DNA from: an uncultured Acidobacteriota bacterium
GTDB lineage: Bacteria > Acidobacteriota > Vicinamibacteria > Vicinamibacterales > 2-12-FULL-66-21
DNA: 64,000 bases
Assembly (NCBI GenBank): GCA_963847125.1
Contig: CAWJYM010000009.1
Location: forward strand, 1,106,658 to 1,170,657
Reading direction: 5' to 3'
Below, one piece after another: positions 1-11,815 of the stretch. A program made the translations under genes and the position numbers. Position 1 is the stretch's first letter, and every line of letters begins with the position of its first letter. Below the pieces are notes generated by a model, which saw only the letters and a program-made list of their open reading frames with translations, was not told where the DNA came from and made no database searches.

Positions 1-738
1 CCGGCGCGCCTCCGCCGGTACTTTGCGGCGCGATACGGCATGACGTTCCAGGCGTACTGCCGCGCGAGGCGGCTCGCGCGCGCGTTCGAGCGCATCCGCG
101 ACGGCGAGCCGCTCGACGATGCGGTGTTCGAGACGGGGTACGAGTCACACAGCGGCTTCCGCGAAGCGTTCCAGAAAGCCTTCGGCCAACCGCCCGGCCA
201 CTCAGCGGACGCCGAATGCATCCGCCTGTCGTGGATCGACACGCCGCTCGGAGCGATGATCGCCGGCGCAACCGATGCGGGTCTGTGCCTCCTCGAGTTC
301 ACAGATCGACGGATGCTCGAACAGGAGCTCGCGACGCTGCGGCGTCGATTCGGAGCAGCGCTTGCGCCGGCGGATCATGCGCACCTGAGGACGGTTCGAG
401 ACGAGCTCGCGGAGTACTTCGCCGGCACGCGCCGGACGTTCACCGTGCCCGTTGTCGCACCGGGCTCGCCGTTCGAGGAGCGTGTCTGGGAGCAGCTCCG
501 TCGAATCCCGTACGGCGAGACCCGTTCCTACGAGGACATCGCACGCGCCGTTTCCAGTCCCGCGGCGGTCCGCGCCGTCGGCCGCGCGAACGGCATGAAC
601 CGGTTGGCGATTGTCATCCCGTGCCATCGGGTTGTGAACAAGAGCGGCGAGCTCGGGGGTTACGGCGGCGGCCTCTGGCGCAAGCGGCGGCTGCTCCATA
701 TCGAGCGGGCCGCGCTCGTTCGCAGTGCGCACTCGTGA
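1..738 (+). CDS. ada: Ada-like protein: AraC-type HTH fused to an O6-alkylguanine-DNA alkyltransferase domain; 5' end lies outside the window
   Basis: Frame 1 is open from base 1 (PARLRRYFAARYGMTFQAYCRARRL, an AraC-type HTH helix). The C-terminal half carries the alkyltransferase active-site motif IVIPCHRVV. TGA at 736-738. Confidence 0.85.
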   Translation, partial: PARLRRYFAARYGMTFQAYCRARRLARAFERIRDGEPLDDAVFETGYESHSGFREAFQKAFGQPPGHSADAECIRLSWIDTPLGAMIAGATDAGLCLLEFTDRRMLEQELATLRRRFGAALAPADHAHLRTVRDELAEYFAGTRRTFTVPVVAPGSPFEERVWEQLRRIPYGETRSYEDIARAVSSPAAVRAVGRANGMNRLAIVIPCHRVVNKSGELGGYGGGLWRKRRLLHIERAALVRSAHS

Positions 739-1023: not shown

Positions 1024-4000
1024 ATGAAGATTCTCTATGTAGCAAACGACCGCCGCGCCGCGCAGCTCGTTGTCAACGCTCTCCGAGTTCACGCACCGGA
1101 CGCAACGCTGGCTTCGACCGAAAGCCTGCTGGACGCTGAACGCTGGGTTTCCGCCAACCGGGACCTCACCGCGCTCGTCGTCGATGCCGAGGTGCAGAAT
1201 CAGAGCGCCGCATCCTTCGTGCGGCACGTTCGCGGTCTCGGACTCACGGCACCGATCATCGTCGTCGCATCGGAGGCGACAGGGACGCCGAGTGCGGTGC
1301 TCAAAGCCGGAGCGGACGACTTCGTCACCGCCGGCGACTCCCTCTCTACCGACTTGCCGGACGTTGTCGGCCGGACGCTGAAGCGGCGTGCGGCGGCCCA
1401 GCCGTCCGGGCAAACGCTGCGGATCCTGTACGCCGGCGATGCCGCGCTCGCGCGGCAGAGCCTTGCGCACCCCGCGTGGTCGATCGAGATCGCCGAAGCC
1501 GTCCTGACGCCGGAAGAACCGTTTCAACCGATTCCGGCAGATTTTCCTGAGACAGGGGAACCGCTTCCCTTCGACATTCTTTTCGTCGAACACGACCACC
1601 CGGCGGTCGATGCGTTCTCGGTTCTCAAGCACATTGCCGACCGCGGGCTGCAGGTCCCCGTCATCGTCGTCGTCGAGTGGGATGACGCGCTCGGCCTCCC
1701 GGCGCTCAAGCTCGGCGCCGCGGACTGCGTGGTGAAGTCAGCCGAGGCGTTCCGCGCGCTGACCTACAGGCTCGATCGCCTCTTCGCCGTACAAGCCCAG
1801 GATGACCGCGCTCAGCGCGAGCTCGAAGCGGCGCGCCAGAGCTGGGAAGAAACCCGGACGAAGCTGGAGACGTCGGCGGCGGCAGAGGCCGCGGCCGCGG
1901 CCGAGCAGCGCGCGCGGCGAGAAACGGACCTGTCCGAAGCCAGCGCGGCGCGGCGCGCGCTCGAACGGCGGCTGGCCGACGTGGAAGCCGCTCTTCACGA
2001 GGCCACCGCAACCGCATCGACCGAGCTCGCGGCCGCCCGGCAGCAGTCGGCGCAGCTCGAGGCGGACCTGGAGGACCGGCTCGCGCAGGAGGTCGCCGCC
2101 CGCAAGACCGCGGAGCACAACCTGGCGCACGCGGACGCATTGTTCCGGGAAACCGAACAGCGGCGGGCCGCGGAAGCGTCATCCTCGGCCAATCTCCTCG
2201 GCCGGCGCGCCGCGGAGCTCACGGCCAGCCTCGCGCACGCCACCCGCTCGCGCGACACGATCATCCTGCAGCTCAGCGACGCCGAGTCGGCGCTCGAAGA
2301 ATCCCGGAAGGAGCGCGCCCGGCAGGAAGCCGAGCTCGCCGCAGCCGCGGCCGCGCGACAGGCGCTCGAACGCCGGCTCGCGGAGGCGGATGCGAACCTT
2401 CAGCAGGCAACCCGGCGCGCGGCGGCCGACCATGACGCGGGTGTGCAGCGGGAAGCGTCCGCGCGCCAGGCGGCCGAAGCACGCTTGGCGGATGCGGAAG
2501 CAGAGCGCGCGGACGATGAGCAACGGTACGCGTCGGAGCAGAGAGCCGCAACGAAGCAGCTGGCCGAGCGTCAGGCACAGCACGACGCGAGCCTCGCGCA
2601 AGCTGCGGCCGCCCGGGACGTTCTCGAACGGCGGCTGGGCGACCTCGAGGCGGAATTCGATCGATCGCGGCAGGATCGAGCGGCAGAGGCCGCCGCAGCA
2701 GCCGAGCAGCTGACGCGGCGCGAAGCGGATCTCGAGCAGCGGCTCGGTCGGGAAGTGTCCGCGCGCCAGGCGGCCGAAGCACGATTGGCGGATGCGGAAG
2801 CAGAGCGCGCGCACGATGAGCAACGGTACGCGTCGGAGCAGAGAGCCGCAACGAAGCAGCTCGCCGAGCGCCAGGCACAGCATGAAGCGAGCCTCGCGCA
2901 AGCTGCGGCCGCCCGGGACGCTCTCGAACGGCGGTTGAGCGACCTCGAGGCTGAACTCGATCGATCGCGGCAGGATCGGGCGGGAGAGGCCGCCGCAGCA
3001 GCCGAGCAGCTAACGCGGCGCGAAGCGGATCTCGAGCAGCGGCTCGGTCGGGAAGTGTCCGCGCGCCAGGCGGCCGAAGCACGATTGGCGGATGCGGAAG
3101 CAGAGCGCGCGCACGATGAGCAACGGTACGCGTCGGAGCAGAGAGCCGCAACGAAGCAGCTCGCCGAGCGCCAGGCACAGCATGAAGCGAGCCTCGCGCA
3201 GGCCGCGGCCGCCCGGGACGTTCTCGAACGGCGGTTGAGCGACGTCGAGGCGGAGCTCGATCAGTCGCGGCAGGATCGAGCGGCAGAGGGCGCCGCCGCA
3301 GCCGATCAGCTGACGCGGCGCGAAGCGGAGCTCGAGCGGCGGCTCGCTCAGGAAACCTCCACGCGCCAGGCGTTCGAAGCGCGGTTGGCAGAGGCGGAGA
3401 CGGAACGTGAGGCTGCCGACGAACGGCATGCGGCGGAGCGGACGACGGCGGCGGCGCAGCTTGCCGAGCGTCACGCGCAGTACAACACGGGCCTGGCCCA
3501 GGCCGCGGCCGCTCAGGACGTCCTCGAACGACGTCTGAACGACGCCGCGGCGGCGCTCGAACAGTCCCGAACGGATCGAGCCGCGGAGGCCATCTCCGCG
3601 GCCAAGCGGTTGACGCAGCGCGAAGCGGAGTTGTCGGAACTGCTCGCGCGGGAAGCGTCCGCGCGCCAGGCGGACCTCAGAGATGTCACGGCCACTCGGG
3701 CCGCGCTCGAACGCCGGCTGGCCGAGGCGGAGGACGAGCTTCAGCAGGCCGGCCAGCGACTGCTCGCGGAACGCGCGACCGTCGTCCAGCTCACTCAGCA
3801 TCACGCGCAGTACGACGCGACGCTGGCTCAGGCGGCCAGCGCCCGGGAAGCCCTCGAACAGCAGTTGAAAGATGCCGCCGCCGCGCTCGAACAGTCCAGA
3901 AAGGACCGAGCCGCCGAAGCTGCGGCGGCCGCAGAGCAGCTGACGGGGCGCGAACACGGAGCTGAAGGGACGGCTCGCACAGGAAGTCGCCGCCCGTCAG

Positions 4001-4488
4001 GAGCTCGAGGCGCTGCTGGCGGACGCGCACCTGGCGCGCGAGGAGGAGAGACAGAGGCTGACGTCCGAGTTGACGACTGCCGCGACGTACTTCTCCGAAC
4101 GCCAGGCCGAGCACGACGTCCACCTGGCGCAAGCGGCGGCGTCGCAGGCCGCGATGGAAAAGGAGCTCGTGGCCGCGGTCGACGCGGCGCGGCGCGACCA
4201 CGCTGCGGCAGCCGCCGCGGCGGCCGACGAGCTCGCACGGCGCGACGCGGAGCTCGCCACCGCCGCCGCAAGCCGCGACGCGTTGAAACGCCAGCTCGCC
4301 GATGCCGAGGCCGCGGCCAGGGCGGGCGACGAGCGCGCGGCGGAGGCCGTTTCCGCGCGCGACGCGGCCATGCAGCAGGCGGCGCTCCGCCAGGCGGAGC
4401 TCGAAGCGCAAGTCGCACAAGGACTCACCGACCGTCAGGCGATCGAGCTGGACCTCGCGAAAGCGCAGGCCACCCACCACGAGGTTGA
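1024..4488 (+). CDS. N-terminal part of a giant signalling protein: receiver domain, degenerate second receiver, then a long Ala/Glu/Arg/Gln coiled coil. The meaningful frame ends near 3955 (frameshift); the 3956-4488 tail is out-of-frame Arg/Gly/Pro sequence
   Basis: Receiver pattern MKILYVANDR ... ALVVDAEV ... IIVVAS ... LKAGADDFV. Second receiver-like block LRILYAGD ... ILFVEHDHP ... LKLGAADCVVK. A 100-aa periodic repeat runs from about 1800 onward, and its register continues in frame 2 from 3944. Confidence 0.8.
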   Translation: MKILYVANDRRAAQLVVNALRVHAPDATLASTESLLDAERWVSANRDLTALVVDAEVQNQSAASFVRHVRGLGLTAPIIVVASEATGTPSAVLKAGADDFVTAGDSLSTDLPDVVGRTLKRRAAAQPSGQTLRILYAGDAALARQSLAHPAWSIEIAEAVLTPEEPFQPIPADFPETGEPLPFDILFVEHDHPAVDAFSVLKHIADRGLQVPVIVVVEWDDALGLPALKLGAADCVVKSAEAFRALTYRLDRLFAVQAQDDRAQRELEAARQSWEETRTKLETSAAAEAAAAAEQRARRETDLSEASAARRALERRLADVEAALHEATATASTELAAARQQSAQLEADLEDRLAQEVAARKTAEHNLAHADALFRETEQRRAAEASSSANLLGRRAAELTASLAHATRSRDTIILQLSDAESALEESRKERARQEAELAAAAAARQALERRLAEADANLQQATRRAAADHDAGVQREASARQAAEARLADAEAERADDEQRYASEQRAATKQLAERQAQHDASLAQAAAARDVLERRLGDLEAEFDRSRQDRAAEAAAAAEQLTRREADLEQRLGREVSARQAAEARLADAEAERAHDEQRYASEQRAATKQLAERQAQHEASLAQAAAARDALERRLSDLEAELDRSRQDRAGEAAAAAEQLTRREADLEQRLGREVSARQAAEARLADAEAERAHDEQRYASEQRAATKQLAERQAQHEASLAQAAAARDVLERRLSDVEAELDQSRQDRAAEGAAAADQLTRREAELERRLAQETSTRQAFEARLAEAETEREAADERHAAERTTAAAQLAERHAQYNTGLAQAAAAQDVLERRLNDAAAALEQSRTDRAAEAISAAKRLTQREAELSELLAREASARQADLRDVTATRAALERRLAEAEDELQQAGQRLLAERATVVQLTQHHAQYDATLAQAASAREALEQQLKDAAAALEQSRKDRAAEAAAAAEQLTGREHGAEGTARTGSRRPSGARGAAGGRAPGARGGETEADVRVDDCRDVLLRTPGRARRPPGASGGVAGRDGKGARGRGRRGAARPRCGSRRGGRRARTARRGARHRRRKPRRVETPARRCRGRGQGGRRARGGGRFRARRGHAAGGAPPGGARSASRTRTHRPSGDRAGPRESAGHPPRG
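2440..3350 (+). repeat. Three near-identical 300-bp (100-codon) in-frame tandem repeats inside the coiled-coil region
   Basis: 2761-2880 and 3061-3180 are base-for-base identical. 2701-2760 versus 3001-3060 differ at one base. 2461-2580 differs at a few positions. More diverged copies of the same 100-aa unit extend from about 1800 to 5300. Confidence 0.95.
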
Positions 4489-6643
4489 ACGCCGACACGC
4501 GGCGGAGCTGGGCACGTCGGCGGCGCAGATCGCCGAGCTCGAAGCCGCGCGCAAATCGCTCCAGGACCGGCTCACCGAGACCGAAACCGGGATTCGGGCC
4601 ACACAGGAGCGCGCGGCGGCCGAACGCGCCGAGGCTGACCAACAGGCTGCGGCGCGGCAGGCGGAGCTCGAGGTGAGGCTCGCACAGGATGGAGCCGAAC
4701 GCCGCACGCTCCAGGCCAAGCTGGAGGAATCGGCCGCATCCGCCGATCTGCTCACGCAGCGGGGCGCGGAGCTCACGGCCAGCCTGGCGCACGCAGGCCG
4801 ACTGCGCGAGACGCTCGAGCAGCAAGTGAGCGACGCGGCGGCGGCGCTCGAAGAAGCCCAGCGGACCCGGACGTCCGACGCCGAGGCGTACCTCCGGCAG
4901 GCGGCCATCCGGAAAGCGGAATTCGAGGAGCGGCTTCGACAGGAGGCGACGGCGCGCGCTCGGTTCGAACGCGATCTCGCGGCGACGCGGCAGACCTCCG
5001 AGCAGGACAAACGACGCTTCGATGACGACATCGCCAGGGTGCAGGCCGACGCTCGCGATCGCGAGACGCGCCTCGAGGATCGGCTCGCTCGCGAGCGGGA
5101 CGACCACGCACGCGCGCTCGCCGAGGCTCAGGAGGTCGTCCGGCACCTGCAGGCCGGGCGCGACGCGCTTCAGCAGTCGCTCGGCGAAGCCGAGACGCAG
5201 CGGGAGCGCCTCGAGCGCGCTCGACTGGCGGGTCAGGCCGAGCTCGAGCGCGCCGCGCGCGAGCATGCCGCGGGGCGCGCGCGGCTCGAAGCGCTGGTGA
5301 CCGAGCGGGAATCGCAGCTGCGCGAGCAGTCGTCGGGCCATGCGGCCTCTCTGGCGGCCGCGAAGAAGCTGATCACTCAAAACGAGGCGCGGGTCGCCGC
5401 GCTCAACCAGGAGCTCGTGGCCGAGAAGAGCGGGCGCGCGGCGCTTCGCGCTCAGGCAGACGCGGTCCCGGCCCTGAAGACCCAGCTCGAAGAGAGCCAG
5501 GCCGAGAGCCGGCGACGGTTCGAGCAGAACCCGCACGGCATGTGCCGGTGCAACCGCGAGGGGGCGCTCACCCAGGCGAACCGCGCGCTGGCGAGCCTGC
5601 TCGGCTATCGAACGAGCGATGACTTGCGAAGGGTGAACGTCGCCACGGCGGTCTTCGAATCCGCAGACGACCTGCGATGGCTGATCGACCGCTGCCTGAG
5701 CACGGGCACGCCCGAGTCGGTCGAAACGACGTGGAAGAGAAAGGACGGAGACCGGTTGATCGTGAAGCTGCTGGCGGTCGCGGCGGCGCCAGACGCGATC
5801 GAAATCGTCGTGGAGGACCTCACGACCCGCCGCGGTCTCGAAGAACGGCTGCGCCAGGCTCAACGCATGGAGGCGGTCGGGCGGCTCGCGTCGGAAGTCG
5901 CGGTCACCTGCGACAACCTGCTCCGGGACGTCAGCCAGGACGGCGAACAGTGGCTCGCGACGATCGACGGCAACACGGCGCTCCGGCACCGGGCCGAGCA
6001 GCTGCTGGCCGAAGTGACCCGCGCCGGCCACTTCCTGCGGCAGCTTGCGGCGTACGGCCGGAAGCAGACGCGCGCGCTCGAGCCGGTCAACGTGACCACG
6101 GTGATGCGCGACATGGAGCCCGTCCTGAAGCGCGTGGCGGGCGACGACATCGAGCTGCTGCTGCCGAAGACCACGCGCCCGGTGAACGTCGACGTCGAAG
6201 CGGAGCGTGTCGAGCGGGTCCTGGTCAACGTGGCCAGCTACGCGCGCGAGCGGATGCCGTCAGGCGGCCGACTGAAGATCGAGCTCGCGTCGGTCGTCGT
6301 CGATGGGCGGTTCATCGCAAAACACCCCAACGTCCGGCCGGGCGCCCACGTCCTGATCACGGTCACCGAGGTGCGTGAGGCCGCGCGCCTCGCCCCGCCG
6401 GGCGCTGCACACAGCGAGCCGGCCGCGGCCGCCGTGAGCCCGGCGTCGGACAAACCTGGCGTCGATCTCGGGGCGCTCCTGAAGCTGATCGCCGACTGCG
6501 GCGGCCACCTGTGGATGACGGCGGAGCCTCCCGGGAACATGATCCTGAAGATCCACCTGCCGAAGCGGACCTCGGACGACCCTCGTCCGGTCGTGACGCG
6601 ATCCGAGCGGGGCGGGTCGATGTCCCGCTGGTTCGGTCACTGA
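4070..6643 (+). CDS. C-terminal part of the same giant protein: coiled coil, PAS-like block, DHp-like helix and HATPase_c-like domain with degenerate catalytic motifs. The frame is open from 3944; 4070 is only the first Met
   Basis: Frame-2 translation from 3953 (TELKGRLAQEVAARQELEALLADAH) continues the upstream repeat. NPHGMCRCNREGALTQANRALASLLGY looks PAS-like. The H-box region reads MEAVGRLASEVAVTCDNLL with no His. The N-box region reads ERVLVNVASYARERMPSGGRLKIEL with no Asn. Confidence 0.8.
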   Translation: MTTAATYFSERQAEHDVHLAQAAASQAAMEKELVAAVDAARRDHAAAAAAAADELARRDAELATAAASRDALKRQLADAEAAARAGDERAAEAVSARDAAMQQAALRQAELEAQVAQGLTDRQAIELDLAKAQATHHEVERRHAAELGTSAAQIAELEAARKSLQDRLTETETGIRATQERAAAERAEADQQAAARQAELEVRLAQDGAERRTLQAKLEESAASADLLTQRGAELTASLAHAGRLRETLEQQVSDAAAALEEAQRTRTSDAEAYLRQAAIRKAEFEERLRQEATARARFERDLAATRQTSEQDKRRFDDDIARVQADARDRETRLEDRLARERDDHARALAEAQEVVRHLQAGRDALQQSLGEAETQRERLERARLAGQAELERAAREHAAGRARLEALVTERESQLREQSSGHAASLAAAKKLITQNEARVAALNQELVAEKSGRAALRAQADAVPALKTQLEESQAESRRRFEQNPHGMCRCNREGALTQANRALASLLGYRTSDDLRRVNVATAVFESADDLRWLIDRCLSTGTPESVETTWKRKDGDRLIVKLLAVAAAPDAIEIVVEDLTTRRGLEERLRQAQRMEAVGRLASEVAVTCDNLLRDVSQDGEQWLATIDGNTALRHRAEQLLAEVTRAGHFLRQLAAYGRKQTRALEPVNVTTVMRDMEPVLKRVAGDDIELLLPKTTRPVNVDVEAERVERVLVNVASYARERMPSGGRLKIELASVVVDGRFIAKHPNVRPGAHVLITVTEVREAARLAPPGAAHSEPAAAAVSPASDKPGVDLGALLKLIADCGGHLWMTAEPPGNMILKIHLPKRTSDDPRPVVTRSERGGSMSRWFGH

Positions 6644-6663
6644 GCCTGCCGCGCCGAAGCCGC

Positions 6664-6714
6664 GAACCCTTACGAACGGCCACGAACCCTCGAGAACCTC
6701 AAGAACCCAAGAAC
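6664..6714 (+). repeat. Six GAAC direct repeats phased at 10,10,10,9,8 bp, between the giant gene and the NarX-like kinase gene
   Basis: GAAC at 6664, 6674, 6684, 6694, 6703 and 6711 (cgcGAACccttacGAACggccacGAACcctcgaGAACctcaaGAACccaaGAACgc). Helical phasing suggests a protein-binding array or bent DNA. Function not shown. Confidence 0.35.
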
Positions 6715-6797: not shown

Positions 6798-8147
6798 GTG
6801 ACGCGCGCGAAAATCCCATCTCCAACCGCCGCCCTGGCCATCGGCCTCCTGCTGACGCTCGGCACCGTCGTCGTCTATTGGTGGTACATCTCCGGTCACA
6901 TCGCCGGGCTCCGGCGGCTCCAGACGGAGCTGACCGATCGCAACCGCAGAGACTCCCTGCAGCTGCTTCGCATACAGAACGATCTGAACCAGATCGCGCT
7001 TGCGATGCGCGACATGCTGGATACAGACCAGCCCTATCCGCTCCTCGCCTGGACCGCGCAGTTCGATCGGATACGAGTGGATCTGGCAGACGCGCTCGCG
7101 CGCGAGGGCGAGGTCGCCGTCGCGCGCCGGACGCCGGAGCAGAGCGAATACCTCGCGACCTCGACGAAGCAGTTCTGGGAGGCTGTCGATCGCATGTTCG
7201 ACCTGGCGAAGGCGGGGCAGGAGCAGGAGGCGCGGTCGCAGATTCGCGTCACGCTGCAGGCCAGGCAGGCGGCCTTGAGCACGACGGTGGCGCGGCTCCT
7301 CGTGCAGAACAACGAGAGCGAGGAGCAGACCGCGCAGCAGGTCCAGAACATCTACCGTGACGTCCAGCGCCAGGCGACCTGGCTCCTCACGGCCACGCTT
7401 GCCGCGATTGCGGCCACGGGCCTGTATCTGATCCGGTCGAACCGGAAGCTGTTCGCGCAGCTCTCGGCGCTGTCCGACGAGCGGCGCGACCTGGCGCAGG
7501 CGCTGATCGCGACGCGCGAATCGACGCTGCGCGAGATCGCGCGTGAGCTGCACGACGAGTTCGGGCAGATCCTGACGGCGATCGGATCGATGCTCGGCCG
7601 GGCGGGCAGACAGGCGCCCGAAGGGTCGCCGCTCCGGGCGGATCTGCGCGAGATCAACGAGATTGCGCAGGCGGCGCTCGACAACGTCCGCGGTCTCTCG
7701 CAGACGCTCCACCCATCGATTCTGGAAGAGCTGGGACTCGAGAGTACGATTCAGTGGTATCTATCGACGGCCGTCAAGCAGCTCGGCCTCGAGGTGACGT
7801 ACGAGAAGACCGGCACCGCCGAGATCGATCACACGACGGGAATCCACGTGTATCGCGTGCTTCAGGAAGCCCTCAGCAACGTGGCGCGGCATGCCGGGAC
7901 GAAGCGCGTGTGGGTAAGGCTTCGCTGCGACGCGGCCGGCCTGCAGCTCGAGGTCGAGGACCACGGGAAGGGCCTCGATCCCGATCTGCCGCGCGGCCTC
8001 GGTCTCGTCGCGATGCGCGAGCGGATAGCGTTGCTCAAAGGCAGCCTCGAGTTCCTGCGTCCCTTCGACGACACGCAGGGCAAGCCGGCAGAGCGAGGCA
8101 CGCTCGTGCGCGTCCGCGTTCCCCTTCCTGCTCCGGCAACGACATGA
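6798..8147 (+). CDS. Membrane sensor histidine kinase, NarX/DesK/LiaS type (HisKA_3 + HATPase_c)
   Basis: GTG start. N-terminal TM helix (AALAIGLLLTLGTVVVYWWYI). H-box ELHDEFGQILTAIG. ATPase motifs HVYRVLQEALSNVARHA and VEDHGKGL ... GLGLVAMRERI. The stop overlaps the regulator start (ATGA at 8144-8147). Confidence 0.9.
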   Translation: MTRAKIPSPTAALAIGLLLTLGTVVVYWWYISGHIAGLRRLQTELTDRNRRDSLQLLRIQNDLNQIALAMRDMLDTDQPYPLLAWTAQFDRIRVDLADALAREGEVAVARRTPEQSEYLATSTKQFWEAVDRMFDLAKAGQEQEARSQIRVTLQARQAALSTTVARLLVQNNESEEQTAQQVQNIYRDVQRQATWLLTATLAAIAATGLYLIRSNRKLFAQLSALSDERRDLAQALIATRESTLREIARELHDEFGQILTAIGSMLGRAGRQAPEGSPLRADLREINEIAQAALDNVRGLSQTLHPSILEELGLESTIQWYLSTAVKQLGLEVTYEKTGTAEIDHTTGIHVYRVLQEALSNVARHAGTKRVWVRLRCDAAGLQLEVEDHGKGLDPDLPRGLGLVAMRERIALLKGSLEFLRPFDDTQGKPAERGTLVRVRVPLPAPATT

Positions 8148-8767
8148 CCCAGAAGATCACCGTCCTGCTCGTCGACGATCATTCCCTGGTGCGGCGCGGC
8201 ATCCGGCGACTGTTGGCAGACGATGGCGGCGTCGCCGTCGTCGGGGAGGCCGGAGACGGCGACGAGGCGGTTCGCCTGTTCGAGGAGCTGAGGCCGCAGG
8301 TGGTGGTGATGGATGCCGCCATGCCGGGCACCAGCGGGCTCGCGGCCACGCGCGCGATCCTCGCCCAGCACCCCGACGCCGCCATTCTGATGCTCAGCAT
8401 GCATTCCGAGGAAACGGTCGTCCGGCAGGCGCTCGACGCCGGTGCACGCGGCTACATCCTCAAGAGCGCGCTCGACCTGGATCTTGCTGCGGCGGTGAAA
8501 CGCGTCGCCGCCGGCGAGACGGTGCTCGATCCCGCGGTTGTCCGCGAGCCCGCCGCCGGCGAGCGACGCCACCTCTCGCCGCGGGAGCTCGAAGTGCTGC
8601 AGCTGATCTGCAAGGGCTACTCCAACCGCGAGATCGCCGCGAAACTCACTCTCAGCGTGAACACGGTCGCCGTGCACCGCGCCAGCATCATGAACACCCT
8701 GGGCGTGCACAAGACCGCCGAGCTGGTCGCGTATGCGATCCAGAACGGCCTGGTGAACCCGCTGTGA
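8144..8767 (+). CDS. NarL/FixJ-family response regulator (receiver + LuxR-type HTH)
   Basis: MTQKITVLLVDDHSLVRRGI ... VVVMDAAMPG receiver. C-terminal LSPRELEVLQLICKGYSNREIAAKLTLSVNTVAVHR is a LuxR/GerE HTH. Translationally coupled to the kinase. Confidence 0.92.
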   Translation: MTQKITVLLVDDHSLVRRGIRRLLADDGGVAVVGEAGDGDEAVRLFEELRPQVVVMDAAMPGTSGLAATRAILAQHPDAAILMLSMHSEETVVRQALDAGARGYILKSALDLDLAAAVKRVAAGETVLDPAVVREPAAGERRHLSPRELEVLQLICKGYSNREIAAKLTLSVNTVAVHRASIMNTLGVHKTAELVAYAIQNGLVNPL

Positions 8768-8774
8768 CCCTTCG

Positions 8775-10460
8775 ATGAACCGCCGCGACTTTCTCGCGCA
8801 GTGTCGGGCGGGCCTCGCGGCCTGGGCGTTGCCGTTCGATCTCGCGCAATCCAGCGGGTCGGTCGGCTTCCGGCTCACCGACGTGACCGCGGCGGCCGGC
8901 CTCCAGTTCCGCCACAACAACGGCGCCTACGGCGGCAAGCTGCTGCCGGAGACTCTCGGGGCCGGCTGCGCGTTTCTCGATTACGACGCGGACGGCTGGC
9001 AGGACATCCTGCTCATCAACGGCCGGGACTGGCCGGGCCACTCTCGGCAGCGCTCGACGCTCCGGATGTACCGCAACAACCGCAACGGCACCTTCACCGA
9101 CGTGACGCGCGGCGCCGGCCTCGACATCGAGATCTACGGCATGGGCGTGGCGGCCGCCGACTTCGACAACGACGGCTTCCCGGACATCTACGTCACCTGC
9201 GTCGGCCAGAACCGTCTGCTGCGCAACACCGGAAAAGGCACGTTCGTGGACGTCACCCGCACCAGCGGGCTCGGCGGGCGCGAGGCCTTCAGCACGTCCG
9301 CGATGTGGGTCGACGTCGACCGCGACGGCTTCCTCGATCTGTTCGTGTGCAACTACGTCCGCTGGTCCACACAGGACGACGTGTTCTGCAGCCTGGACGG
9401 GAAGCAGAAGTCATACTGTACGCCGGAGGCGTACCGCGGCGACACGTGCTGGTTGTTCAGAAATCGGGGCGACGGCACGTTCGAGGACGTCACCGCGACG
9501 TGTGGCCTCTTCGACTCGAGCTCGAAGTCGCTCGGCGTCGCGATGATCGACCACGACCAGGACGGCTGGCCGGACATCTTCGTCGCCAACGACACCCAGC
9601 CGAACAAGCTGTATCGCAACCAGCGGAACGGCCGGTTCGTGGACGTGGCGGTCGAGGCGGGCGCCGCCTTCAGCGAGGACGGCAAGGCTCGCGCAGGCAT
9701 GGGTGTCGACGTCGCCGAGATCGACGGTTCCGGAAGGATCGGGCTGGCGATCACGAACTTCGAGGGAGAGATGATCGGGCTCTACCGCGCCGACCGCCCC
9801 GGCAGGTATCAGGACGTGGCCACGCAGGCCGGCGTCGGCCTCGCGTCGCGCAACAGGCTCGGGTTCGGCTGCGTCTTCGCGGATGTCAACCTCGACGGCG
9901 CGCTCGATCTCGTCGTCGTCAACGGCCACATCGACGACACCGTGCGGAACATCCGCGGCAACCTGGGCCACGCGCAGCCCGCACAACTCTTCCTGAACGA
10001 CGGGAAAGGCAGCTTCCGCGACATCGCGGGCGACGTCGGCGGCGGATTCGCCCAGCCCAGGGTCGGACGCGGCCTCGCCTACGGCGACTTCGACCGCGAC
10101 GGCGACATCGATCTGCTCATGACGACCAACAACGGCCCCGCGGTCCTTTTTCGGAACGATCACGCGGCTGGGAATCGAAGCCTGCGAGTCCGGCTCGTCG
10201 GGACCAAGTCGAACCGGGACGCGATTGGCGCGACCGTGCGCATCTTCCACGACGGCACGTCGCAGACGCGCGTCGTCAAGAGCGGATCGAGCTATCTCTC
10301 TCAATCGGAGCTTCCGGTGACGTTTGGCGTCGGCAAACGGGATCGCGTCGATCGCGTCGTCGTGAGCTGGCCGAGCGGACGGACGGATGAGTTCAAGAAC
10401 GTCGCGTCGGGACGGGCCTATCAGTGCGTGGAGGGGAAGGATCTCGCGCCCGTCACGTAG
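8775..10460 (+). CDS. Secreted CRTAC1-family protein (FG-GAP/VCBS repeats + ASPIC/UnbV C-terminal domain) with a twin-arginine signal
   Basis: MNRRDFLAQCRAGLAAWALP is Tat-like. Repeated DxDxDGxxD FG-GAP motifs (DYDADGWQDILL, DFDNDGFPDIYV, DVDRDGFLDLFV, DFDRDGDIDLL). C-terminus NRDAIGATVRI ... SGSSYLSQSELPVTFGVG is UnbV_ASPIC-like. Confidence 0.88.
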   Translation: MNRRDFLAQCRAGLAAWALPFDLAQSSGSVGFRLTDVTAAAGLQFRHNNGAYGGKLLPETLGAGCAFLDYDADGWQDILLINGRDWPGHSRQRSTLRMYRNNRNGTFTDVTRGAGLDIEIYGMGVAAADFDNDGFPDIYVTCVGQNRLLRNTGKGTFVDVTRTSGLGGREAFSTSAMWVDVDRDGFLDLFVCNYVRWSTQDDVFCSLDGKQKSYCTPEAYRGDTCWLFRNRGDGTFEDVTATCGLFDSSSKSLGVAMIDHDQDGWPDIFVANDTQPNKLYRNQRNGRFVDVAVEAGAAFSEDGKARAGMGVDVAEIDGSGRIGLAITNFEGEMIGLYRADRPGRYQDVATQAGVGLASRNRLGFGCVFADVNLDGALDLVVVNGHIDDTVRNIRGNLGHAQPAQLFLNDGKGSFRDIAGDVGGGFAQPRVGRGLAYGDFDRDGDIDLLMTTNNGPAVLFRNDHAAGNRSLRVRLVGTKSNRDAIGATVRIFHDGTSQTRVVKSGSSYLSQSELPVTFGVGKRDRVDRVVVSWPSGRTDEFKNVASGRAYQCVEGKDLAPVT

Positions 10461-11531
10461 GCGCCTTCTCCCTTGGGGTTCTTGGGGTTCTTGGGGCGAC
10501 GGAAGATAGAGATTCGCGAGGCCGAGCCGGATCGAATCGATATCGACGTCATTGAGGTTCATCAGGACGATGATCGTCAGCCGATCGTCCACGAACCGCG
10601 CGAATTCGGAGCGAAAACCGGGCATCCCGCCGCTGTGATGGACCACCTTTCGACCTCGGACCTCACCAAGTTCCCAACCGAACCCGTACGGAGAAGTGGC
10701 GCCGTCGTTCAGCCTCGCCGGAGCCCACATCTGGCGGCGGGAGGCCTCGCTGAGAATTCTGTCGGTGTCGAGCATGGCGTCCCACTTCGCCAGATCCAGC
10801 ACCGTCGACAGGAAGGCGCCGCTCGGACGCAGCGCCGGCCAATCGTCGGCGTTCCGCAGCGTGTCGTTGTCGGCGTAGCCCTGGGCCCGTTTCGGGAGAC
10901 TCACTTTCGTGTTGGTGGGGAAGGTCGTGTTCATGCCGGAGGGCTTGAAGACCTTGTCGGTCAAGTACTCGGTCCATGGCCGGCCGGACACCTTGCTGAT
11001 GATCTCGGCGAGCGCGAAGTACCCGGTATTGCAGTATTCCCACTTCTCGCCCGGCGCGAATCGCAGCGGCCGGGGGTAGGCGGTCTCGAGGAGATCGGCG
11101 TCGCTCTGAATCGTGAAGGGATCGAATCCCGGGGCCTCGCGGAGGAGGCCTGACGTGTGGGTCAGGAGATGCCGGATCGTGATGGCGTTCCACGCCGCCG
11201 GTGTCTCTTCGAGGTACCTGCTGATCGGATCATCGACGCTGAGCCGGCCTTCCTGGGCAAGCAGCATGATGCCGGTCGCGATGAACTGCTTGCTCACGGA
11301 GGCGATTCTGTAGACCGTTTCAGGTGTGGCGGGCGTTTTGAGCGCGATATTCGCCAGGCCATACCCTTCGGACTTGATGATCGTCCCGTCCTTGATGACG
11401 ACGAGGGAGAGACCCGGAATATTCTGGCGCTTCATCTCGGCCCTGACGTAGTCGTCTGTCTTGTCCGCCCGCGCGACAGCCGGGGCAAGCAACAACAGGA
11501 GAACGAACACGGGGATACGTGCAGGCCGCAT
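9411..11531 (-). CDS. Beta-lactamase-family serine hydrolase. Only 10470-11531 looks like the protein; there is no in-frame stop until 9411, so the ORF runs antisense through the neighbouring gene
   Basis: ATG at 11531. Signal peptide MRPARIPVFVLLLLLAPAVARA. SxxK motif in YRIASVSKQFIATG. About 352 aa of family-like sequence ends in LANLYLPSPQEPQEPQG at 10470-10500. Downstream of that the translation is Arg/Asp/Val-rich shadow sequence opposite the CRTAC1 gene. Confidence 0.75.
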   Translation of the reverse strand: MRPARIPVFVLLLLLAPAVARADKTDDYVRAEMKRQNIPGLSLVVIKDGTIIKSEGYGLANIALKTPATPETVYRIASVSKQFIATGIMLLAQEGRLSVDDPISRYLEETPAAWNAITIRHLLTHTSGLLREAPGFDPFTIQSDADLLETAYPRPLRFAPGEKWEYCNTGYFALAEIISKVSGRPWTEYLTDKVFKPSGMNTTFPTNTKVSLPKRAQGYADNDTLRNADDWPALRPSGAFLSTVLDLAKWDAMLDTDRILSEASRRQMWAPARLNDGATSPYGFGWELGEVRGRKVVHHSGGMPGFRSEFARFVDDRLTIIVLMNLNDVDIDSIRLGLANLYLPSPQEPQEPQGRRRLRDGREILPLHALIGPSRRDVLELIRPSARPAHDDAIDAIPFADAKRHRKLRLREIARSALDDARLRRAVVEDAHGRANRVPVRLGPDEPDSQASIPSRVIVPKKDRGAVVGRHEQIDVAVAVEVAVGEAASDPGLGESAADVARDVAEAAFPVVQEELCGLRVAQVAADVPHGVVDVAVDDDEIERAVEVDIREDAAEPEPVARREADAGLRGHVLIPAGAVGAVEPDHLSLEVRDRQPDPSGTVDLGDVDTHACASLAVLAEGGARLDRHVHEPAVPLVAIQLVRLGVVGDEDVRPAVLVVVDHRDAERLRARVEEATRRGDVLERAVAPISEQPARVAAVRLRRTV

Positions 11532-11545
11532 CGCGATGTCCCTCT

Positions 11546-11815
11546 TCACCTTAGAACCAATACGGCGGCCGCGCGCAGGAACAGGCCGACCAGGAGCCCG
11601 AGGATCAGCGCGGCGCCGCCGTAGACGATCACATACGGGGGCGCCTCCATCGGCCGTGTGACGATTCCCGGCGCGAGATACAGGAGCGCCGTGCCGAGGC
11701 CGCACAGCCCCGCCTCGAGCGCGGCGACATCTCCGGGCGTGTACTCATGCCGACTGACCACAAAATGGCGCTGGTCACTGTTTCGATCGTCAGGAGACCT
11801 TTCCATCCCCCTCAC
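11546..11815 (-). CDS. Possible small two-TM membrane protein (hypothetical)
   Basis: ORF only. Hydrophobic stretches GLCGLGTALLYLAPGIV and YVIVYGGAALILGLLVGLFL. No recognisable family. Ends 15 nt upstream of the hydrolase start. Confidence 0.3.
   Translation of the reverse strand: MRGMERSPDDRNSDQRHFVVSRHEYTPGDVAALEAGLCGLGTALLYLAPGIVTRPMEAPPYVIVYGGAALILGLLVGLFLRAAAVLVLR

Follow-up and report, generated by a model that had tools for sequence, protein, structure and literature searches.

Recognition of pseudo-receivers and histidine pseudokinases as functional classes has only just begun (PMC12632262; PMC12963549). FrzS, in which a non-phosphorylatable receiver is combined with a long coiled coil, acts as a localized polar beacon or scaffold outside the phosphorelay (PMC1974792; PMC9811614). 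In Caulobacter, the dead kinase core of DivL reads a response regulator (PMC4211667), and in Streptomyces the polarisome is tuned by PsmA, a histidine pseudokinase that lacks the phospho-accepting His and the ATP motifs, possesses a lid incompatible with ATP binding and shows no autokinase activity in a 32P assay (PMC12963549). Moreover, very long, repeat-built coiled coils deviating from a perfect heptad pattern serve as scaffolds in coiled-coil-rich cytoskeletal proteins of bacteria such as FilP and crescentin (PMC2680258). Within this study, a giant gene of an uncultured Acidobacteriota bacterium was compared with these systems. It is located at positions 1024-6643 on the plus strand of a 64,000-nucleotide stretch of contig CAWJYM010000009.1 (assembly GCA_963847125.1, positions 1,106,658 to 1,170,657), hereafter referred to as the window.

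Based on sequence comparison, structure prediction and selection analysis, the region is proposed to represent, with fair probability, one gene for a cytoplasmic, non-enzymatic, dimeric and rod-shaped scaffold or spacer built from two-component parts and derived from a CckA-like hybrid kinase. New features are the fusion of both dead halves of a two-component system on one chain, a giant modular rod with a copy number varying between species, and a conserved tethered C-terminal peptide.

Overall Architecture of the Encoded Protein

Joining nucleotides 1024-3954 and 3956-6643 yields a protein of 1,872 amino acids (aa). The first-pass annotation, made from the sequence alone, had described a single gene of roughly 1,870 aa encoding receivers, a coiled coil, a PAS domain and a kinase-like module comprising a dimerization and histidine phosphotransfer (DHp) and a catalytic and ATP-binding (CA) part. 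Size and domain order were both borne out, with orthologs being intact. The features of the gene and their basis, including models computed with AlphaFold2 (AF2) and its predicted local distance difference test (pLDDT) values, are as follows:

1024..6643, plus strand: whole gene, 1,872 codons and a stop without the extra base at 3955 (intact orthologous open reading frames at loci L001 and L002)
3955..3955, plus strand: single extra base causing the apparent frame break, outside a homopolymer (blastn and MAFFT against L001)
1024..1398, plus strand: putative pseudo-receiver 1, aa 1-125 (Pfam, PhoP alignment, CheY-anchored family alignment, AF2)
1411..1788, plus strand: putative pseudo-receiver 2, aa 130-255 (RssB and PmrA alignments, AF2, Foldseek)
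1789..5509, plus strand: predicted coiled-coil rod, aa 256-1495, 1,240 aa (composition, single Pro, hydrophobic periodicity)
1819..4936, plus strand: array of modules of about 100 aa, aa 266-1304 (hidden Markov model (HMM) of the unit; six full-length and about five diverged copies)
2449..3673, plus strand: youngest part of the array (Tandem Repeats Finder; 300-bp unit, 4.1 copies, 86% matching)
4937..5509, plus strand: non-repeat stalk adjoining the PAS domain, aa 1305-1495 (conserved in the family, columns 300-460 of alignment A1; periodicity 3.55)
5537..5818, plus strand: PAS domain, aa 1505-1598 (Pfam PAS, PAS_8 and PAS_9; TIGR00229; AF2 pLDDT 84-91)
5822..6079, plus strand: DHp-like helical hairpin, aa 1600-1685 (CckA and family alignments, AF2)
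6092..6565, plus strand: degenerate CA domain of the Bergerat fold, aa 1690-1847 (CckA and family alignments, AF2, Foldseek)
6575..6640, plus strand: disordered C-terminal tail, aa 1851-1872 (AF2 pLDDT <50; conservation of the tail)

A Single Gene with One Surplus Base

The window has a GC content of approximately 70%; the gene region is rich in repeats, reaches 72% GC and carries an apparent frame break. Two overlapping open reading frames (ORFs) on the plus strand were observed, namely 1024-4488 in frame 1 and 4070-6643 in frame 2. According to their translations, the repeat rich in Ala, Glu, Arg and Gln exits frame 1 past ...AAAEQLTGRE and is picked up in frame 2 at TELKGRLAQEVAARQ..., and the break was placed at position 3955 by the register of the repeat. 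Comparison with the orthologous locus L001 by means of blastn and MAFFT revealed exactly one surplus base at this position (CGC GAA C ACG GAG in the window vs. CGC GAG ACG GAG in L001). At the break, the joined protein contains the stretch EQLTGRETELKGR, and the intact L001 protein matches the joined peptide EQLTGRETELKGRLAQEV exactly. Across the break, the orthologous sequences of L001 and L002 both show no difference from the joined reading.

The L001 ortholog is encoded by one uninterrupted ORF of 1,896 aa starting from MKILY and shares 95% identity over the C-terminal module, and the L002 ortholog, originating from a short-read (k141) assembly, likewise by one of 1,859 aa (84% identity). 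Since orthologous ORFs are intact, one of them in a short-read assembly, the break represents a single-base insertion and the rod length is no artifact of the repeats; long-read and short-read assemblies, independent of each other, agree on this length. The region thus harbors one real gene.

No slippery heptamer was found near 3955. A programmed frameshift at this position was rejected, because a slippery sequence is missing, the ortholog lacks the base and the breaks follow the assembly series. Within the gene family, frame breaks were observed in 18 of the 27 assemblies of the 'MFD' series vs. none of the nine others (Fisher p=0.001). The split MFD loci (L005, L007-L010, L019, L026, L029-L031, L035, L042, L043, L059, L061, L063, L068 and L069) have their reading frame changed at least once within the repeats of the rod. 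Flye-style contig names, together with the background of the project, suggest that MFD assemblies are presumably based on long reads. Most likely, the break at 3955 reflects a consensus or assembly error within a repetitive gene of high GC content; less probably, this one genome has very recently acquired an inactivating mutation.

Many family ORFs appear short (380-850 aa), and at 18 loci receiver and rod modules were found directly upstream in other frames. Moreover, protein clusters with a short representative hold full-length members of 1,243-1,794 aa. On these two grounds, genuine short receiver-less paralogs, as which the MFD ORFs of 380-700 aa could be taken, were rejected. Frame errors split two thirds of these genes in one series of metagenome-assembled genomes (MAGs), the MFD series, so that protein databases hold mostly fragments of 400-700 aa of proteins comprising 1,300-2,400 aa, which hides the architecture.

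An artifact or a dead gene, i.e., a misassembled repeat inflating the rod or a decaying pseudogene, would account for a frame break inside such a repeat-rich region and for the fact that half of the related loci are also frame-broken. It has, however, largely been refuted and is regarded as very improbable: in addition to the intact ORFs from independent assemblies, the restriction of breaks to one assembly series and the full-length cluster members, 18 related loci encode uninterrupted proteins of 921-2,147 aa, and the ratio of nonsynonymous to synonymous substitution rates (dN/dS) is below 0.45 in every segment of the gene.

Two side observations concern the same region and its surroundings. 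A serine beta-lactamase-family gene at 10500-11705 (minus strand) is intact in the window, and its counterpart in L001 (11712-12762) is split by a 1-nt insertion, a further sign of sporadic assembly indels. Furthermore, long antisense ORFs overlap the rod between 1700 and 6100 on the minus strand, e.g., 3791-6031 with 746 aa; the gene-like GC content at their third codon positions results from the GC-rich sense strand with its few stop codons.

Putative Tandem Pseudo-Receivers at the N-Terminus

Response_reg was matched by Pfam in two stretches of the N-terminal part (E 3e-10), for which AF2 predicted two (beta-alpha)5 folds (pLDDT 85 for the model, about 90 for receiver 1). In receiver 1, PhoP and CheY-anchored alignments placed Ala7/Asn8 at the positions equivalent to D12/D13 (CheY numbering) and Ala at the K109 equivalent, which is variable in the family; the T87 position is not conserved either. 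The acceptor position is occupied by Asp54 (nt 1183-1185) in the window and by Glu in most relatives, including L002. The description of this receiver as near-canonical in the first-pass annotation could therefore not be upheld: the acidic pair and the beta5 Lys are missing, and the Lys that had been cited, the one within LKAGADD, is different from the conserved beta5 residue. In receiver 2, which had been described as lacking a normal acceptor pocket, Glu189 (nt 1588-1590) occupies the acceptor position and Val the T87 equivalent. Its acidic-pair positions read Gly/Asp and the beta5 Lys is retained. In the AF2 model, alpha2 of receiver 2 is exchanged for a Pro-rich loop and alpha5 (residues 240-271) runs on into the rod. 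Since acidic pair, Lys or acceptor/Thr positions are lost, both domains are, as judged from sequence, considered pseudo-receivers.

The REC-pseudoREC tandem of PleD was the top Foldseek match for the N-terminal 272 aa. Approximately half of the family members possess two receiver folds and approximately half possess one. A homolog search with the N-terminal 261 aa returned 12 matches, which were mostly garbled or truncated.

PAS Domain, Degenerate Kinase Core and C-Terminal Tail

Within the joined protein, Pfam identified Response_reg and PAS, and no match to HisKA or HATPase_c was obtained even at E<=1. TIGR00229 scored 38.5 bits on the PAS domain vs. a cut-off of 22.9. Over their full length, the C-terminal 271 aa can be aligned with the DHp-CA part of CckA (5idj; phmmer against PDB, E 1e-9). 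CckA-type NCBIfam models match the C-terminal region at E 1e-27 with scores far below their cut-offs; the NCBIfam scan provided no equivalog, only sub-threshold matches of CckA, VirA and AtoS type. The AF2 model of the C-terminal part (pLDDT 74; model residue r corresponds to aa 1446+r) consists of the following elements:

Model residues 59-152: PAS domain
Model residues 154-239: helical hairpin (DHp)
Model residues 244-401: alpha/beta domain (CA-like)
Model residues 342-364: disordered at the position of the ATP lid
Model residues 405-426: disordered tail

Foldseek matches of this model comprise PAS-containing histidine kinases (YF1-type LOV kinases), domains related to plant phytochrome histidine kinases, NifL and CckA; the CA-like domain superimposes on the CckA CA domain 5idm with a template modeling (TM) score of 0.66.

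Residues required for phosphoryl chemistry are missing from this core. The H-box reads MEAVGRLASEVAVTCDNLL (GRLASEVAVTCDNLL vs. canonical GRLAGGVAHDFNNLL), with Val1627 (nt 5903-5905) at the phospho-His position. In the N-box VLVNVASYARERM (NVASYARERM vs. canonical NLAVNARDAM), Tyr1739 (nt 6239-6241) stands for Asn. The position of the G1 DxGxG motif reads ITVTE (DDGPG aligned to TEVRE; ITVTEVRE), a replacement conserved in the family, F-box and ATP lid have given way to a Pro/Ala-rich loop that varies within the family (aa 1788-1810, pLDDT <50), and KPGVDLG is a family-conserved remnant of the G2 motif GxGLGL. The losses of His, Asn and G1, already noted in the first-pass annotation, thus proved to be real and conserved family-wide: the His equivalent is Val, Leu, Ala or Met in family loci and never His, none of the profile alignments puts a His into the DHp helix, the N-box Tyr is present in all 46 recognizable family N-boxes, and all three losses are fixed over about 60 Vicinamibacterales loci.

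Some residues are invariant in the pseudokinase family and have no counterpart in canonical kinases, namely Cys1629 (His+2), His1775 (PGxHVL) and GGHLW (aa 1828-1830). These residues might constitute a novel binding site for a ligand, metal or partner. An enzyme that persists in unconventional form, i.e., a kinase or phosphotransferase operating via other residues such as the invariant Cys/His, or else a receptor for a nucleotide or second messenger, would fit the invariant polar residues Cys1629, His1775, His1828 and Trp1830 and the retained Bergerat fold. This is nevertheless judged to be hardly probable, given that the Mg-binding Asn is replaced by Tyr, G1 is gone, and F-box and lid form a variable disordered loop. 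In CckA, c-di-GMP is bound at Y514/K518/W523 (PMC5026420); binding of this messenger in the CckA manner was rejected, as these residues are aligned to Leu/Ala/His here.

The protein ends with RWFGH, and the terminal consensus of the family, R-W/L-F-R/G/Q-H, follows a variable tether approximately 20 aa in length. Coupling of the tail peptide to the receiver at the N-terminus was rejected, since the tail is kept whether a receiver is detected or not; most of the cases without receiver in this comparison are frame-broken or cut at a contig end.

The Coiled-Coil Rod and Its Modules

The first-pass annotation had proposed a coiled coil of more than 1,000 residues built from units of 100 aa, and the unit HMM and the periodicity support this over 1,240 aa. 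The rod consists of 27% Ala, 14% Glu, 14% Arg, 10% Leu and 9% Gln and contains 24 Gly and one Pro, the latter at aa 1482 in the non-repeat stalk. Its hydrophobic period is 3.56 residues (power 6.25 vs. a maximum of 1.4 in 500 shuffles), and a period of 3.55-3.57 was the global optimum in all four rod sub-segments, non-repeat ones included (power 2-6 vs. a shuffle maximum of about 1). Such a period, just over 3.5, would fit 28 turns per 100 residues, e.g., eight heptads and four hendecads. A periodicity of this kind, uninterrupted by helix breakers except for one Pro in 1,240 aa, agrees with a coiled coil, presumably two-stranded, whose length at 0.1485 nm per residue would amount to about 184 nm. 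A spectrin-like three-helix reading of the unit was not favored, as loop-forming residues are missing and the hydrophobic residues stay in phase from one unit to the next.

The 100-aa unit was recognized in 47 of 58 family loci with zero to nine full copies, so that the module is old, family-wide and variable in number. Apart from the unit, a near-identical motif pair was detected, with LLGRRAAELTASLAH at aa 391-405 (nt ~2194-2238) and LLTQRGAELTASLAH at aa 1242-1256 (nt ~4748-4792), i.e., about 135 aa past the start and about 250 aa before the end of the rod. A role of this LL..R.AELTASLAH duplicate as hinge or docking site of the whole family was rejected, because the motif is present only in the window, L001 and L002.

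These motifs bear on an intramolecular antiparallel rod comparable to SMC/Rad50, in which the chain would fold back to a self-docked hairpin of 90 nm with the pseudo-receivers placed on the pseudokinase. Receiver and DHp, which dock mutually in real systems, are indeed situated at the two ends, and the duplicated motif lies near each rod end in this ortholog group, but is absent in the remaining family. The direct tandem repeats show no central hinge, globular domain or Gly/Pro cluster, single-unit module changes between relatives would unbalance the arms, and DHp and PAS dimers as well as the continuous alpha5 helix favor parallel pairing. A fold-back rod is accordingly seen as unlikely.

Family Distribution, Selection and Origin

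Scanning of GTDB genomes with the family alignment resulted in 72 related loci, nearly all of them from Vicinamibacterales/Acidobacteriota soil MAGs, several of which carry two paralogs. From receiver start to stop, family members comprise 921-2,417 aa (median 1,613, n=36); the giant size is thus normal for the family. In databases they are named only 'PAS domain S-box protein' or 'hypothetical protein', and a full-text literature search for Vicinamibacter and coiled-coil returned nothing relevant.

Selection was evaluated by dN/dS according to Nei-Gojobori for the window vs. L002 and vs. L001:

DHp: 0.024 vs. L002, 0.05 vs. L001
CA-like domain: 0.12 vs. L002, 0.22 vs. L001
PAS domain: 0.14 vs. 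L002, 0.18 vs. L001
Receivers: 0.18-0.23 vs. L002, 0.18-0.20 vs. L001
Tail: 0.15 vs. L002, 0.17 vs. L001
Rod: 0.33 vs. L002, 0.43 vs. L001

Within the protein, the strongest constraint is that on the DHp of the 'dead' kinase; the pseudokinase is thus under purifying selection rather than decaying and is predicted to be functional.

The strong constraint on the DHp helix, which in real kinases constitutes the docking surface for receivers (dN/dS 0.02-0.05), also supports a regulator of the DivL type. The pseudo-DHp would then dock a genuine, phosphorylated response regulator or a genuine kinase encoded elsewhere, under control of the PAS domain; regulation of that pathway would be the principal task of the protein, which the rod would merely localize. 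The retained and conserved PAS domain and the precedent of DivL (PMC4211667) point in the same direction. On the other hand, a conserved neighboring kinase or regulator was not found, the phosphatase-type motif past the His position is not conserved, and a rod of 1,000-2,000 aa with variable modules is hard to explain through regulation alone. Reverse signaling of this kind overlaps and is compatible with the proposed scaffold; it is ranked second, with a clearly lower probability.

A profile search against 1.84 billion representatives (clusters at 50% identity) identified about 130 clusters above approximately 300 bits, many of them with 1,000-1,700 aa. Below this value, a step down to proteins with an internal match only was observed. 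Four of these were inspected and turned out to be canonical multi-PAS hybrid kinases featuring intact H, N, G1, F and G2 boxes, a homologous PAS domain and a C-terminal receiver, three of them also an N-terminal receiver. Since canonical hybrid kinases are the nearest relatives outside the family, the latter is concluded to descend from a REC-(PAS)n-HK-REC hybrid kinase (HK, histidine kinase) of the CckA-like clade. The family appears to be confined to Vicinamibacterales.

Proposed Function of the Giant Protein

The following course of events and arrangement are proposed for the scaffold or spacer. The PAS array of the ancestor would have been replaced by tandem coiled-coil modules of about 100 aa and its C-terminal receiver by a short tethered peptide, and the residues for phosphoryl chemistry would have been lost on the receiver and kinase sides. 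Two chains presumably pair in parallel, with the C-terminal end fixed by the four-helix bundle of the DHp and the PAS dimer, and the rod would extend straight from alpha5 of receiver 2, in register at the other end. The resulting stalk of about 180 nm would carry a pair of pseudo-receiver heads at one end and the PAS/pseudokinase head with the flexible RWF(R/G)H tail at the other. The heads may serve as protein-binding modules in the way known from FrzS, DivL and PsmA, and the rod could represent a spacer or filament element with a length tuned in evolution through the module copy number. Ligand dependence of binding at the pseudokinase end may be conferred by the PAS domain. A scaffold, ruler or cytoskeletal role is inferred on this basis, and the first-pass suggestion of a scaffold or ruler still provides the best fit.

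In an extension of the scaffold, the docking interface would be reused for polymerization: the pseudo-receiver head of one dimer of about 180 nm would engage the adjoining dimer at its pseudo-DHp or its tethered RWFRH peptide, leading to a head-to-tail filament or lattice under PAS control, with the subunit length set by the number of modules (zero to more than nine). This extension is speculative, and the chance assigned to it is small.

Several points weigh against the proposed scaffold. The window copy is frameshifted and, should the extra base be real, this allele is a pseudogene. The conserved polar residues Cys1629, His1775, His1828, Trp1830 and Arg1741 could indicate an unrecognized ligand or chemistry beyond mere binding. 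The Ala-rich core with sparse Leu could also form trimers, antiparallel pairs or bundles. Moreover, every family member originates from uncultured MAGs.

Genomic Neighborhood

Upstream, a gene at 40-738 (plus strand) that runs off the window start encodes an Ada-like protein combining an AraC-type helix-turn-helix with an O6-methylguanine-DNA methyltransferase (Pfam E 6e-34) and is unrelated. Downstream on the plus strand, Pfam identified a HisKA_3/HATPase_c kinase (6798-8147), a REC-GerE regulator of LuxR type (~8162-8767) and an FG-GAP/ASPIC protein (8775-10460). Synteny of this trio is limited to L001 and L003; the latter carries an insertion of about 6 kb between the giant gene and the pair. 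The NarX/NarL-type pair noted as neighbor in the first-pass annotation was thus confirmed as such, but it is missing beside L002 and all other loci. A functional link to it was rejected, as it is common only to the closest relatives. In an all-against-all clustering of flanking ORFs from 58 loci, no cluster was present in more than six loci, i.e., no conserved neighbor was found. The absence of a conserved operon partner is consistent with a stand-alone structural protein.

The giant gene is preceded by a spacer of 285 bp, and searches for promoters and terminators provided no informative match. Directly past its stop codon, a 20-bp unit is present in two copies (78% match) at 6659-6697, within the 154 bp that separate the giant gene from that of the NarX-like kinase, and a terminator-like hairpin was not detected at this site. 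ARAGORN detected no tRNA or tmRNA genes in the window.

Significance of the Family

Both two-component halves are dead in one polypeptide, yet they are under strong purifying selection. The rod ranks among the longest predicted bacterial coiled coils, and its length shifts between species in steps of 100 aa. Vicinamibacterales represent an abundant, barely cultured soil order. Studying the family would show how signaling folds are converted into structural or organizing elements, and it could reveal a new cytoskeletal or spacing system in Acidobacteriota. If the head-to-tail polymer were true, bacteria would possess a cytoskeleton or molecular ruler of a new class, made wholly from two-component parts.

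Comparison with Known Systems

Scy, like FilP and crescentin, is a long coiled-coil protein acting as a cytoskeletal or polar scaffold. All three differ from the giant protein in lacking globular heads derived from two-component systems, and no sequence relationship to them was detected.

With FrzS and AglZ of Myxococcus xanthus, the giant protein shares an N-terminal pseudo-receiver followed by a long dimerizing coiled coil. However, two receiver folds are usually present here, the rod is three to six times longer and composed of 100-aa modules, and the PAS domain and pseudokinase at the C-terminus have no equivalent in FrzS/AglZ. The host belongs to the Acidobacteriota, and no link to MglA or motility genes emerged from the gene neighborhood. 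FrzS structures were absent among the PDB sequence matches at E<=1 and among the top 50 Foldseek matches. Two consecutive receiver folds also occur in PleD, but the first receiver of PleD is phosphorylatable and coupled to a GGDEF output, whereas neither active site is intact here.

The likeness to PsmA and DivL consists in a DHp-CA fold with a replaced phospho-His, accompanied in PsmA by the loss of the ATP motifs, and in an interaction or scaffolding role at the cell pole. PsmA differs as a hybrid with a C-terminal receiver and without a giant rod, its partners Scy and FilP being coiled-coil proteins in their own right. In DivL, the CA domain still binds ATP and the His site is occupied by Tyr. 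In the giant protein, pseudokinase and rod are united in one chain. Specific homology to FrzS, AglZ, DivL or PsmA was not detected.

Regarding origin, CckA-type PAS hybrid kinases are the clear evolutionary source, providing the best PDB match (5idj) and the best NCBIfam models; the nearest non-family representatives share the PAS domain and the MEAVGRLA...LAFSRKQ...NLAVNARDAM framework. The giant protein differs from them in the loss of His, N-box Asn, G1, F-box/lid, C-terminal receiver and c-di-GMP site. With its defining residues missing, the product would functionally fall outside sensor kinases and phosphorylatable receivers, and under the working definitions it is a histidine pseudokinase and a pseudo-receiver/coiled-coil protein. 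The first-pass annotation had known of no described system in which a kinase fold lacking His, Asn and G1 terminates such a rod. This has to be restricted insofar as pseudokinases and pseudo-receiver/coiled-coil proteins have each been described separately, but it holds for the combination of both on one giant modular rod, which is new.

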